A stretch of 63,997 nucleotides of DNA, filler included, from Ionaspis alba (taxonomy: Eukaryota), in NCBI GenBank assembly GCA_964255285.1. It is 3 parts of 3 records of this genome, joined end to end, with 100 filler letters (N's around TTAATTAATTAA, not from the genome) between each part and the next. Parts side by side here need not be neighbours in the genome. Positions count along the whole stretch, not along the records: positions 21,504 to 42,900 come from CAXUUL010000225.1; 2 more parts are not named here. One strand, given 5' to 3'. Below the pieces are notes generated by a model. It was not told where the DNA came from. It worked only from the letters and a program-made list of their open reading frames with translations, and searched no databases. Of this stretch, positions 24,057 through 30,297 are shown piece by piece; position 1 is the first letter of the stretch; each line of letters opens with the position of its first letter. Made by a program: the position numbers and the translations under genes.

Positions 24057-25370
24057 GCAAGACCAAGGCTATCTCAAAAGTTTGGAGCACAATGGCAATG
24101 TCAAAGACTTTACAGCATCCAATCCCAAGAAGAAGCAATTGCCAAACTCCCAGGCCTCAATCCCTCACAGCTCTCTGTCACCAAAACCACCACCCCAAAA
24201 CAGGTCCTCCCGCCTGAAGAACTTGTCTTTGGCCGGGCATTCACAGGTACCATTGGTCCCTCTAAGGCGCAAGACATGAAAAACTGACAAGATAGACCAC
24301 ATGTTGTCCATAGAATGGACGGCGTCAGAAGGCTGGCTACCCCCCCGGATAACACCCTACCAAAATCTCAGTCTCGATCCCGCCACCTGCGTCTTCCACT
24401 ACGCGTTCACCGCTTTCGAGGGCATGAAAGCCTACAAGAACTCCGACGGCCAAGTCCGCCTCTTCCGCCCCGATAAGAACATGGCTCGCCTGAACAAATC
24501 CTCCGCTCGTATCGCCCTTCCCAACTTTGACCCTAACGCCATGATCGACCTGCTCTCGAAATTCGTTTCCATGGAAGAGCGCTTCATTCCCGCGTGAGTC
24601 ATCCTTGCGTCCGGCCTCAATTCACAGAGAAAAGCCCAGAAACTGACAATCTACCCTTTTCTAGCTCTCGCGGCTACTCCCTCTACCTCCGCCCAACCAT
24701 GATCGGTACCCAGCGCACCCTCGGCGTCGGCCCACCTGGCTCCGCCCTCCTCTACGTGATCGCCTCCCCCGTCGGCCCTTACTACCCTACAGGCTTCAAA
24801 GCCGTCTCGCTCGAAGCCACTGACTATGCCGTGCGCGCCTGGCCAGGTGGTGTTGGCGATAAGAAGCTCGGTGCCAACTATGCGCCATGCATTGTACCGC
24901 AAATGGAGGCTGCGAAGCGAGGCTTTCATCAGAACCTGTGGCTGTTTGGGGAAGAAGAGAAAGTAACGGAGGTGGGGACGATGAACTTCTTTGCTGTGTT
25001 GAAGGGGAAGAAAGGCTTAGAGCTGGTGACGGCACCGTTAGACGGGACGATATTGGAGGGCGTTACGAGAGATTCGATATTGGATCTAGCGAGGGAAAGA
25101 CTTGTGCCCGAGGGATGGACAGTCAGTGAGAGGTATGTTACTATGGGGGACTTGGCGAAGGCTTCAGAAGACGGGACGTTGGTTGAGGCGTTTGGAGCGG
25201 GCACGGCAGCAGTGGTTAGTCCTGTGAGGAGAATTGGCTGGAAGGGGAGGCTCGTGGAGTGTGGGTTACGGGAGGATCAAGAGGCGGGAGAGACGACGAA
25301 GAGGATGAAGGAGTGGATTGAGGGCATTCAGTATGGGGATGAGGAGCATCGCTGGAGTGTCAAGGTATGA
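24057..25370 (+). CDS. BAT1: Branched-chain amino acid aminotransferase (class IV PLP), probably mitochondrial; 5' end in gap
   Basis: [46 protein letters not shown] (PLP Lys), [17 protein letters not shown] and [10 protein letters not shown] motifs. Introns 24247-24295 and 24594-24664. Confidence 0.93.
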
Positions 25371-25668: not shown

Positions 25669-28182
25669 CTATGATGACCTTGCAAGCTCAATCACCTTAT
25701 CAGCCGCCTCCTCGAAGTCATCAAAGGCATGTAACGGCAATCCGCTCTCAGCAATCTGCTACCAAGTCAGTCCAAGACTCTGTCCTATCATCCAACATGA
25801 CCACTTACCATCTTCTGACCAATCTGCTCATTGGTCCCCCTGAGCCTGACCACAACAGGCAACTTGATCCCTAGATCTTTATATGCAAGCAAAATTCCCT
25901 CGGCAATCATATCACACAGCGTGAGTCCACCAAAGATGTTGACAAAGATAGTCGTCACGCGAGGATCTTTCAAGATGAGGCCAAAGGATTTCTTGACGGT
26001 CTCGCTTGTGGCTTTTCCTCCAGTGTCGAGAAAGTTGGCGCATCGACCACCATGATCATGGATAGCGTCCGTGGTATTCATGGCTAGACCAGCGCCATTA
26101 ACTTTGAGGACAGTCAGCAAATGAACAGAAACTTTGGAGGACGATAGTGGAATACCAAGCGTGCCAATATTCCCATCACCTGCCAATCTAGATCATAAGA
26201 CTTCTTAGCGAGACAACCGGACATGTGGTTTCAGCAAGACAAGGCATACTTTATATACACAATACCGTCCTTCTCCGCTTCGACTTCTTGTGGATCAGCA
26301 TGTTCGAAATCCCTCATCGGCTGTAGATCTTGCTGTCGTTTCCCGCTCCGAAAGGCGGCGTCGTCGAACTGGAAGTCTGCCCCATGAACTGCCCAGCCAC
26401 CTTCTTTCGTTTCCCAGACGCAGATTTTTAGTGTTGATGCTTCCTTTTCTTGGTACAGGCGCATGAGGCCCAAGAGAATGTCTCTCAGTTGTTCATTAAA
26501 CTGCAATTCAGGTTCGAGAGATGCTGCTTCTGTTGCAATGCCTTCGCGGGTGTGCTGATCGGCATTGGGTGGATACGGTACCGCCTTTATCACCTCCACA
26601 TTTGTGCTATCTTGATCCGGAAAATGGGATGCCAGGATCTCAAGGCGTCTAGTCGGTCTTGTCACGCGTATCGTGAACTGAAAGGTCCTGATGGAATGCT
26701 TCGAGATTTCCCGTACTGGAATATCGTAGCTTTTGAGTATGTTAAATGCTTCTGGTTGTGCAATTGAGAGATACCGTTTGCTCGGCTTTGGCGACGATGA
26801 TTGCGGTACAAGTAGTCTGCGGGATGCAGTGTGCATACCTCTTATTTGTGAGAAGTTCTTACTCGGTGAGCGCATATGTCAGTACGGCCCGATGTCTGAT
26901 ATTATCACAACCTACCGCAGGATTTGCACCAATTTGGCCACCCAGTAACTGTTTCATAATGTTGCCAAATTTTGCTGGGTGGTTCGTCATGACAACACCA
27001 GCTTTTTCAAGAGCTCGATACTTGCTCTCCGCAGTCCCTTCGCCCAGGGCTGTGTAAGCACCGGCATGGCCCATGATTCGGCCTGGTGCAACCTGGAAGC
27101 CGGCGACCAGGCCCATGATAGGTCTCAACAAGCTGTTAGCATACTCAATTTTCGACGATTAATTCTTGATATTACTTGGGACTCTTAGTCCTCTGATGGT
27201 AATCCGCAATCCAATCTGCAGCTTCCTCCTCGGCACTTCCTCCCAACTCTCCGACGATGATGATGCCTTTGGTTGCTTCATCTTGCTCAAAGACAGTCAA
27301 GGCATCCACGAAATCTGTTCCTGGAAGGACATCTCCTCCCATACCAATCACAAGGCTTTGACCAACACCTGCTCGAGTCGTGGATGCAACAGTCTCGTAA
27401 CTTAGTGTGCCTGACTTGGCAACGATTCCTACGCTGCCTTTTGTGAAACATGGGATAGGGGGAAATCCAATTCTACATCTGCCTATAGGAGAGATCATGC
27501 CCGGACAGTTGGGACCGACGAGCCTCGATTTGGACTGCGTTCTGAGCATCTGATGAATCTATTGGCTTTAGTAATTGAGGCATTCCATTTCTGGGCATTT
27601 TGACCTCACTCGAAGCTGGTCATGTAGTGGAATGTGCTCCGCCACTGCAACAATCAGGGGTATTTCTGCTGCTACCGCTTCTTCGATAGCTCCGGCTGCC
27701 TGACCTGCGGCGACGTAGACAGCTGTTGCGTCTGGATTGAGCTGTTCCTTGGCCTGAAGAGAGAAAAACTCAGCGCGTCTCCAGAGAAGATCGAGCATGT
27801 TGAACGACTCATTGGTTGTCGTTATCACTCACAGCTCGCATTGATGGGAGAACGGGGAGCCCAAGATGCTCGCCTGTTCTCCCTGGCCTCACGCCACCCA
27901 CAATCTTCGTGCCATATTCTATTGACTGCTTGGCATCAAACGTGGCCTGAAAGGTCTCAGTAGACATTCAAGTGGATCAGAACCAGTATGCTATACCTGC
28001 CTGCCTGTAAACCCCTGGAACACAACTCTCGTGTGAGATCCAATCTTCAAATTCGGGATGGTTTTCTCATTTCGACGTAAACAAGCACCGGTGAAAAACA
28101 GATTCAATTGACGATGACTATAATTGAAGAATATATTACAAGATGTGCTTTGCCTTCTCAACGATAGATGCCGAATTATCAT
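25669..28182 (-). CDS. Fused succinyl-CoA ligase-like protein: alpha subunit + degenerate beta subunit in one gene
   Basis: Alpha motifs: [40 protein letters not shown]. Beta motifs: [42 protein letters not shown]. Introns 27947-27996, 27754-27832, 27559-27609, 27124(or 27133)-27175, 26858-26915, 26188-26248, 26102-26155 and 25756-25808 give one open frame to TAG at 25669-25671. Confidence 0.85.
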
Positions 28183-28667
28183 GGTGTTAAATCAGAATCA
28201 ATTGAGTAGAAAAGATTGTCAGCTTGTTCGTCGAGGCAAATGCAGTATGAAATCACAAAGCAACGCTTGGAAAACAAGAGATATTGGGAGTGAATATCAC
28301 ATTTCTACACAAGACCTCCTCCGATCACGGCTAAATGGGCAAATGCTGATCAACATTCGTCTCCTTCGTTATCCTTGTCGTCCGGCACAGCGGAAACCGA
28401 AAAAAACGTGGGGTTGTCCCCAAAGTCCAGCCCTGCGGCATGAAACGTGGGGGGTGGGGCAGCAGCAACCATCCAGATCCCGCCGTGCCGATCGCTGACA
28501 CTCTGGCTTCCAACACCATCTTACATTCCAGCCTGCCATTTCTCAGCGTAGTGTCGACGCCAGTGTCTCAATCCTCACGAATCCACTATTCCACTCAATC
28601 TTCAATCAAAAAGCCCCACTTCGCACCTTTCATCCCAACCATTCGATACCTTTCATCCAATCCCAAG

Positions 28668-29255
28668 ATGTCGGTAGCAGAGCGCAGACGACAAGGTAAC
28701 AAAGCACCCGCGTACTTGCATACCCGCGACGCACTATACTGGCAATTAACCGCTCCAGATGTCGAGGCATCCCTCGGCGGCCTTTCCCTTTCCTCTTCGT
28801 CGCACAAAACCAAGAAAAAAGTCCCAAAGCAGCAAACTTCGACAATTGCCGACTCCTGGGAAGAGGACGCATCCTCCGATACCGAGACGGAGGACTCTCC
28901 TCGTCCCAACGGCAACGACTTTCCTAGTGCTCCGCCTCCAACGCCGATTTCGCCTACATCAACCACTGCGAGAGCAGGCTGGGGCGAGTTCGAGAATCCC
29001 TATTCTCCTAACGGAGGTGATGGCTTGATGAGCCCTGCCAGACCGAACTTTAGACCTGAGAAGCAGACGGCTGTAGCCGGGAGACTCATTGCTGGGGCAT
29101 TGGGGGTTAGGGCTCCGAAGAAGACAGAGGAGCAGAGACAGTATGATAAGGCTATGAAGGAGAAAGAGATTCGACGACGAGAGAAGGAAAGGGAGGGCAA
29201 GAGGAGGGAGGAGGAGGACGTGCAGAAGGCTAAGGCGGCGATTTGGGATTCTTGA
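28668..29255 (+). CDS. Conserved fungal hypothetical protein with an R3HCC1-like C-terminal motif
   Basis: ATG at 28668 and a probable in-frame intron at 28696-28758. ADSWEE motif, then RPEKQTAVAGRLIAGALGVR followed by a charged coiled coil ending AIWDS. Confidence 0.7.
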   Translation: MSVAERRRQGNKAPAYLHTRDALYWQLTAPDVEASLGGLSLSSSSHKTKKKVPKQQTSTIADSWEEDASSDTETEDSPRPNGNDFPSAPPPTPISPTSTTARAGWGEFENPYSPNGGDGLMSPARPNFRPEKQTAVAGRLIAGALGVRAPKKTEEQRQYDKAMKEKEIRRREKEREGKRREEEDVQKAKAAIWDS

Positions 29256-29644: not shown

Positions 29645-29937
29645 TCATATAGCCATCGATGTTGTGGGTGACCAGGATATTTATTTGCCATTTATCAGAA
29701 ACATGCTGGTCACAAAGATGTCGAGACCAAGCTAGTACTTCCTGTGAGAAGCTTCAAAGATGTGGATACCACTAGGACGCCACGAGCGCCCGCTTCTCCA
29801 CCTGGATAGACGAAAATCTAGAAACCATAGATACTGGTGCAAGCTCTCCGATTTGCGCTCGATCTTCCCAAATATCCTGCGTGGCTGACGATGAACGTGC
29901 CGCCGTCAACGGTGCCTCCTTAGATGTGCAGGCGAGT

Positions 29938-30297
29938 CTAGCAACCTCCAATCTGCTCCTGGTGTACTTCCAAAGTGTCGCCATCTTGCATGTCCAACTA
30001 GAAAAAACAGGAGTCAGCACTGCTAGAACCGAACTTTGCAGGTGGGAGAAGGAGACTTACTGTATCAGGACTGTCTGTCTGGTTCACACGAGCCCCATCG
30101 AACAGAAAGCGCACAGTCTTGGGATCTTTGCCTTGTCGATCACAGAAGGCGTCCATAAGCTTCTTCAAGGCTGTTGTCCGCTTGATTTTGAAGAATACTT
30201 CATTGTTGTTGTCGGTGACTTTGATGTTAAGATGCTCCGATGGAGGCTGATCAGTGGGCTTGTCGGCTGCACCTGGCGACTGATCTTGTTCTGACAT
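29938..30297 (-). CDS. SMT3: SUMO (small ubiquitin-like modifier), 98 aa
   Basis: EHLNIKVTDNNNEVFFKIKRTT, RFLFDG and a C-terminal EQIGG-C. Coding intron 29998-30060; an apparent 5'UTR intron at 30380-30447 (GTACGT..GCTGAC..TAG). Confidence 0.97.

Follow-up and report, generated by a model that had tools for sequence, protein, structure and literature searches.

A gene of Ionaspis alba encodes, in one spliced frame, an α′ half and a β′ half related to the two succinyl-CoA synthetase (SCS) subunits and joined by a linker that resembles a mitochondrial presequence. We consider it likely that the product is a composite mitochondrial precursor cleaved by MPP, with the cut predicted at one or both of two linker sites. 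The precursor would be laid out as presequence, α′, internal presequence-like linker, and β′. The N-terminal leader would drive import into mitochondria and would then be removed by MPP, which would also cut the unfolded chain in the linker, using either R-2 site or both (R351-G/M and R373-Y/L, the slash marking the cut); Icp55 might then trim one further residue. This would free a spacer of about 22 residues and leave α′ (about 33 kDa) and β′ (about 34 kDa) as a 1:1 pair. Import, cleavage, the site used, and pairing are steps that we infer from a real fusion, basic leaders, near-invariant R-x-hydrophobic sites, a disordered and acid-poor linker, and a site 2 placed where mature β starts.

The fusion gene and its distribution

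The window, by which we mean the whole stretch of DNA that was analysed (63,997 nucleotides, filler included), contains the following features of the gene.

25669..28182, minus strand: whole α′-linker-β′ SCS-like fusion gene, 9 exons, 684 amino acids, inferred start codon
28069..28182, minus strand: N-terminal presequence-like leader, residues 1-38, no D or E, net charge +6
26916..28068, minus strand: α′ half, exons 1-5, CoA-binding and ligase domains, from Pfam matches in homologues
27066..27068, minus strand: equivalent of the catalytic phosphohistidine, His295 in MGHAGA, invariant in 101/101 rows of alignment A1
26858..26915, minus strand: junction intron, phase 0, 58 nt, inferred splice (GTAGGT ... 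CTGAC ... AAG)
26828..26848, minus strand: site 1, Q-I-R-G-M-H-T (family pattern Q-[RK]-R-x-hydrophobic-H-T), predicted MPP R-2 cut after Gly352
26777..26827, minus strand: spacer between the sites, basic and acid-poor, variable in sequence and length, from homologue composition
26762..26779, minus strand: site 2, K-R-Y-L-S-I (family pattern Q-[KR]-R-[SNT]-[LI]-Y-[IL]), predicted MPP R-2 cut giving mature β residue 1
26690..26713, minus strand: short loop in place of about 85 ATP-grasp lid residues (canonical KAQVLAGGRGK region), from alignment with canonical β
25669..26770, minus strand: β′ half, exons 6-9, truncated ATP-grasp, C-terminal ligase domain intact, from structure comparison

The spliced frame is open over 2055 nt, and its product is 60% identical over the full length to the homologue P0010. 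The α′ halves of homologues match the Pfam families CoA_binding, Ligase_CoA, and Succ_CoA_lig; the catalytic role of the His295 equivalent would be that of the corresponding histidine in SCS. The 32-residue linker peptide opens exon 6 (codons 26857-26762, minus strand) in frame with the α half, and its two arginines are residues 351 (codon 26842-26840) and 373 (codon 26776-26774). The junction intron and intron 7 of the gene both end in an AAG acceptor. At the junction the acceptor is tandem, GAG/TAAG/AAC (26858-26862, minus strand), with GAG 4 nt upstream of AAG. Use of GAG would place a TAA stop right behind the α half, retention of the intron also closes the frame, and an α-only product by either route is possible in I. 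alba.

Two protein searches with linker-containing queries gave 173 matches each, the best 120 of which were listed each time. Among these best 120 of 173 per search, the named full-length matches are mostly 630-710 amino acids long, usually bear the database name SCS α, and come from Penicillium, Aspergillus, Coccidioides, Helotiales, Xylariales, Sordariales, and lichen fungi. Metagenome contigs were also scanned by two β C-terminal patterns alone, with the linker unused; 80 loci were kept, 61 with an α-end anchor and 19 without. The His loop, the linker, and the β start stand in one frame with no junction intron in 52/61 anchored loci (45 by pattern and 7 by eye). The remaining 9/61 have an intron at the matching place, and a trial splice kept the frame in each of the six distinct loci for which it gave a result. 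A single stop-free frame runs from the α CoA motif to the β C-terminal motif in 8/48 loci that hold both ends. Because 52 of the 61 anchored loci cross the junction without an intron, the fusion is, as read from the sequence, real and widespread.

We rejected the idea that the full-length proteins found on short Logan contigs represent spliced mRNA, given the eight genomic loci that are also stop-free. Several database models are over-long at 890-1478 amino acids (P0006, P0007, and P0009 of Penicillium; P0239 and P0240 of A. fumigatus), and the three from Penicillium carry an extra PF00755 domain; these models are probably merges with adjacent genes.

The two routes to a stop offered by the junction intron of I. 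alba, and the presence of a methionine in 160/221 linkers, bear on the idea that two products are made without proteolysis, α through intron retention or the GAG/TAA stop and β from an internal start, with the linker as its own presequence. We regard this as very improbable, since 52/61 loci lack both a junction intron and a stop, 61/221 linkers are free of methionine, and no methionine position is conserved (the best two columns reach 38% and 42%).

The linker and its two sites

The initial annotation had described the linker as free of acidic residues, rich in R and S, and provided with two R-2/R-3-like sites, and the I. alba peptide agrees with this description in having no D or E, a net charge of +6, and the arginines R351 and R373. 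No acid-free run in the protein is longer than the one that contains the linker (residues 316-380, 65 amino acids); however, the absence of acidic residues is by itself a weak signal because the folded α domain has a 57-residue acid-free run of its own. Across homologues, D and E together make up 1.4% of the residues between the sites versus 14% in the rest of β, R makes up 20%, and 145/214 spacers are free of acidic residues. In 87/99 proteins no 25-mer past residue 45 is more basic than the linker, whose net charge per residue is 0.26 versus 0.18 for the first 30 residues. Judged by composition, the junction stretch is presequence-like, and it is predicted to be disordered. The N-termini of homologues are basic, S/T-rich, and often contain R-x-F-S, the leader being judged by composition alone.

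The linker arginines, whose conservation in homologues the initial annotation had raised, are kept, so that the lack of site conservation which it had named as counting against its reading does not hold. The conservation set comprised 236 proteins, of which 223 were anchored for column counts; both arginines are conserved at 0.99 in these 223, a 99% figure that is biased upward because the set came from linker-containing queries, and both are also kept in 61/61 of the anchored loci found through the β C-terminal patterns (by pattern or by eye, duplicates counted). In the same 223 proteins the conservation of the site-1 histidine is 0.98 and that of the threonine 0.95, and the spacer is mostly below 0.3. 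A set of 57 sequences with less than 60% identity over the segment gives 0.98 and 0.98 for the arginines, 1.0 for the histidine, and 0.93 for the threonine. Alignment A1 (101 rows) has the site-1 R in 100/101, H in 101/101, and T in 97/101 rows, and the site-2 R in 100/101. An alignment-free count, for which 226 of the 236 proteins were anchored and 10 were not, recovered both motifs in 214/226 anchored proteins and in 53/55 non-redundant ones. Of the anchored linkers, 218/226 contain the site-1 motif R-x-[FLMIVY]-H-[TS], which matches just once in the 112,666 residues that lie elsewhere; taken by itself, the site-2 motif discriminates less well, with 40 matches outside linkers. These motifs are evidently beyond chance and under selection. 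The distance between the two arginines ranges from 6 to 40 residues (median 23).

In run X1 a second sequence variant covers 26339-27727 at roughly one quarter to one third of the depth, which shows that the sample contains two related strains or haplotypes. Over the linker and site 2 this variant shows four substitutions along with 3 inserted nt (one added residue), and both arginines are intact, one via a synonymous change. We count the retention of both arginines despite the other linker changes in favor of the cleaved precursor.

The two sites differ in origin. Site 2 aligns with QQKRSL/SIHEY, the leader end of the canonical β subunit of the same genome, and the canonical leader has no counterpart of site 1. 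Because the canonical leader ends alike at the aligned place, and because two β intron positions are common to the fusion gene and the canonical β gene of this genome, we take site 2 to descend from the β presequence and site 1 to be an addition. In the beta-part model of P0016, residue 89, two past the invariant R87, aligns to residue 1 of the pig and E. coli β chains, so an R-2 cut there would create the natural β N-terminus; the proposal in the initial annotation that the second site sits where mature SCS β begins (LSI) is thereby sustained.

An AlphaFold2 model of P0010, the closest homologue, was built from the 101-row alignment and has a mean pLDDT of 82 and a pTM of 0.83. Its α half superposes on human and pig SCS α with a Z score of 41 and an rmsd of 1.7 over about 300 residues and ends near residue 342, and residues 349-379 have pLDDT values below 50. 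The invariant R358, H361, and T362 fall inside this predicted disordered stretch, as would be expected for a short recognition motif. The constancy of the site-1 histidine (101/101) and the occurrence of the motif in a lineage that lacks the ATP-grasp lid might instead point to working parts of the mature enzyme, with R-x-hydrophobic-H-T docking in the space of the lost lid or its histidine taking the phosphate of His295. Against this, the segment is below 50 pLDDT in both models (P0010 and P0016), the spacing between it and each folded half differs greatly among members, and the histidine is replaced by tyrosine in several members; we consider such a role decidedly unlikely. The His-Thr of site 1 nonetheless varies less than do the N-terminal sites of the family itself, and this extra tightness may reflect another role. 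MPP may prefer His/Thr at P2′/P3′, a preference for which we found no printed source in the literature searched, including the accessible part of PMC8835746.

Divergent members bear on the cleaved precursor in both directions. The test set consisted of 40 α-β proteins within the 150 best 50%-identity representatives; by pattern, site 1 is present in 29/40 and both strict motifs in 26/40, most misses being near-matches by eye. P0309 of Mycena indigotica has a very short linker in which both R-x-hydrophobic-H sites are still present, which we count in favor of cleavage. P0302 of Hypomontagnella has an acidic linker with no site 1 and just an R-S-L at site 2, and P0465, from an independent assembly, has an identical linker; P0326 of Geopyxis has site 1 and lacks site 2. 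We count the loss of site 1 in P0302 and of site 2 in P0326 against cleavage. P0318 (730 amino acids, three Logan members) has the reverse order, β′-α′, with a basic linker and R-T-F-S-T ahead of α, and the leaders of stand-alone β relatives end in site-2-like motifs; both observations favor the cleaved precursor. P0347 of Trichosporon asahii is a β-α fusion with an acidic linker and no such motif, and related enzymes may thus work uncut. In the α tree the fusions form a clade with a stand-alone Ustilago α, P0347, and P0318 (100/99), apart from canonical α subunits, with inner placements that are unsure owing to long branches. Three basidiomycete proteins are α-β fusions (P0309, P0303, and P0308, from M. 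indigotica, M. chlorophos, and M. filopes, respectively); P0309 and P0303 nest among ascomycete fusions in this tree, and the Mycena fusions may have arisen by horizontal transfer.

The single-chain model of P0010 folds well (pTM as above), so assembly does not require a cut. This confident model, the homology of site 2 to the end of the canonical β presequence, and the absence of one or both sites from P0302, P0326, and P0347 would fit a protein that stays one chain, its linker being either an uncleaved targeting-like stretch that helps import or the relic of an old β presequence. A relic should decay, yet the arginines are near-invariant while the spacer runs from 6 to 40 residues; an import helper accounts for the charge but not for a fixed R-x-hydrophobic-H-T that has one match in 112,666 residues elsewhere, and the canonical β leader offers no counterpart of site 1. 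We find a permanently single chain unlikely and favor cleavage by MPP. Neither the proteomics supplement of PMC10886707 nor the accessible part of that of PMC8699231 lists the P. anserina orthologue (B2AYY5, PODANS_1_12650), and the abstract of PMC7969656 mentions no N-terminomics.

The nucleotide site and the possible reaction

The initial annotation had envisaged a polyprotein cut into α and β subunits of SCS; the fusion, its conserved sites, and the traits of its linker support the polyprotein reading, but the halves are not ordinary SCS subunits, part of the ATP-grasp domain being lost and canonical genes being present elsewhere. The I. alba protein and all eight aligned homologues lack about 85 residues spanning KAQVLAGGRGK of canonical β. 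Compared with canonical β, the fusion β also lacks EINP and the Asp of MDAK, and FGGIVRC is replaced by FGGLT-[LR]-[CG]. Pfam ATP-grasp_2 matches homologues from profile position 93-108 onward only, the motif K.Q[VI]..G is present in 0/236 proteins, and the letters GGRG occur anywhere in 1/236. The β′ model aligns with SCS β chains at Z scores of 24-25 over 278 of 385-393 residues, and only 125-136 residues align with isolated ATP-grasp chains (204-239 residues). The fusion β is thus without the complete ATP-grasp nucleotide site of SCS β, whereas the fusion α has both the CoA site and the phosphohistidine loop of SCS. Separate canonical α and β genes are found in the same genome (L004 and L002). 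Because of the loss of about 85 ATP-grasp residues and the presence of these canonical genes, the fusion product is evidently not the SCS of the Krebs cycle; it is probably a CoA enzyme that works independently of nucleotides. The fusions make up a second fungal SCS-like lineage without the normal nucleotide site. Databases label the gene "succinyl-CoA synthetase subunit alpha," although nucleotide binding of the usual kind would be impossible.

The residues of the CoA side are kept in alignment A1: the histidine, the Glu of GEIGG, and a β Asn are each present in 101/101 rows, and the Tyr of SGTLSYE in 98/101, with roles presumed from those of their E. coli SCS counterparts. The β substrate loop of the fusion differs from that of SCS. 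Given that the CoA/phosphohistidine site is kept and the nucleotide site is gone, and by analogy with SCS chemistry, we tentatively suggest, with somewhat less than even confidence, that the enzyme carries out the CoA-side half reactions alone on some acid, that is, CoA transfer between acids via phosphohistidine or acyl-CoA hydrolysis. The lost nucleotide site points to a so far uncharacterised mitochondrial CoA reaction. A broader picture, which we offer as speculation and consider rather doubtful as a whole, is that filamentous ascomycetes possess a mitochondrial CoA-moving enzyme on an SCS scaffold that is free of a nucleotide site, is cut twice by MPP, and is held at 1:1 with no mixing with the canonical subunits, a design that would have arisen again in reverse order in P0318.

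A sister family consists of stand-alone β proteins in which the ATP-grasp motifs are variously decayed (P0440 and P0409 of Trichoderma and Ophiocordyceps; P0423 and P0436 of Fusarium). P0440 is annotated as joined to a FAS1-like dehydratase (PF13452), and P0409 is similar, possibly hinting at a dicarboxylate-CoA pathway. The genes adjacent to the fusion gene are as follows.

about 24100-25370, plus strand: gene resembling branched-chain aminotransferases, Pfam Aminotran_4, arranged tail-to-tail with the fusion gene
28659-29255, plus strand: divergent gene, no Pfam match, part of a conserved block
about 29900-30260, minus strand: SUMO gene, part of the conserved block
from 31990, plus strand: long ORF, part of the conserved block

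Across 37 related loci the shared neighbors of the fusion gene include the SUMO gene (18/37) and the divergent upstream gene (19/37). We rejected the neighborhood as a clue to the substrate, its shared members being of a housekeeping type and not a pathway cluster. The divergent gene, the SUMO gene, and the long ORF accompany the fusion gene as a conserved block in 13-19 of the 37 loci; the aminotransferase-like gene is absent from the 25 most shared neighbor groups of the related loci.

Comparison with known systems

In alpha fold, catalytic His, CoA motifs, and β C-terminal domain, the fusion is like mitochondrial SCS (human 6G4Q, pig 2FP4, and E. coli 1SCU; L004 and L002 in this genome). 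Mitochondrial SCS, however, has separate subunit genes and a complete ATP-grasp domain, whereas the fusion is one gene whose β has lost the lid and GGRGK. ATP-citrate lyase and the β-α fusions P0367 and P0375 (about 700 amino acids) resemble the fusion in holding both subunit types in one chain; they differ in their β-α order, in being uncleaved, and in having no presequence-like linker, and GGRGK is intact in P0367 and P0375.

The available text of PMC8734313 and PMC8847149 lists a handful of MPP-cleaved composite precursors. Besides Arg5,6, the accessible portions of these papers name Atp25, Etp1, Rsm22-Cox11, SPAC22A12.08c, and rice RPS14, each of which, like the SCS-like protein, is a fusion whose junction resembles a presequence and has an MPP site, either predicted or demonstrated. 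No SCS-like protein was found among the composite precursors listed in the available text of the two papers, and the main text of PMC8734313 contains the string "succin" nowhere. We found no published description of an SCS-like α′-β′ fusion family in a search beyond whose reach most subscription papers lay. The class of mechanism is already known, and the family itself was not found in print and is apparently undescribed. It joins two subunits of one enzyme, with two sites kept over several fungal classes. The Arg5,6 paper, in its available text, leaves open why such tandems persist (PMC8734313), and the natural variants of the SCS-like family (either order, a shrunken linker, a lost site, stand-alone subunits) make it directly testable whether the production of subunits in tandem helps them assemble.

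The closest parallel is Arg5,6 of S. cerevisiae (ARG-6 of N. crassa), which, as far as the accessible text of PMC8734313 extends, likewise has an N-terminal presequence and an internal presequence-like junction with an R-2 motif that fungi conserve. MPP cuts an R-2 site in the internal stretch of Arg5,6, and a second matching motif is left uncut (PMC8734313, available text); this use of one of two motifs we count among the points against the predicted cleavage. The R-3 pattern is attributed to trimming of Y, L, or F by Icp55 in the accessible part of PMC8847149. In Arg5,6 the cut is demonstrated and yields two different enzymes (PMC8734313, available text), whereas in the SCS-like fusion cleavage is predicted and would yield two subunits of one enzyme. 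The residue at P1′ is aromatic in Arg5,6 (RSY) and mostly I, L, or M in the SCS-like fusion, and the spacer of the fusion is flanked by two conserved sites, unlike in Arg5,6. The products of Arg5,6 form a complex (PMC8734313, accessible text), and α′ and β′ would pair in a similar way.
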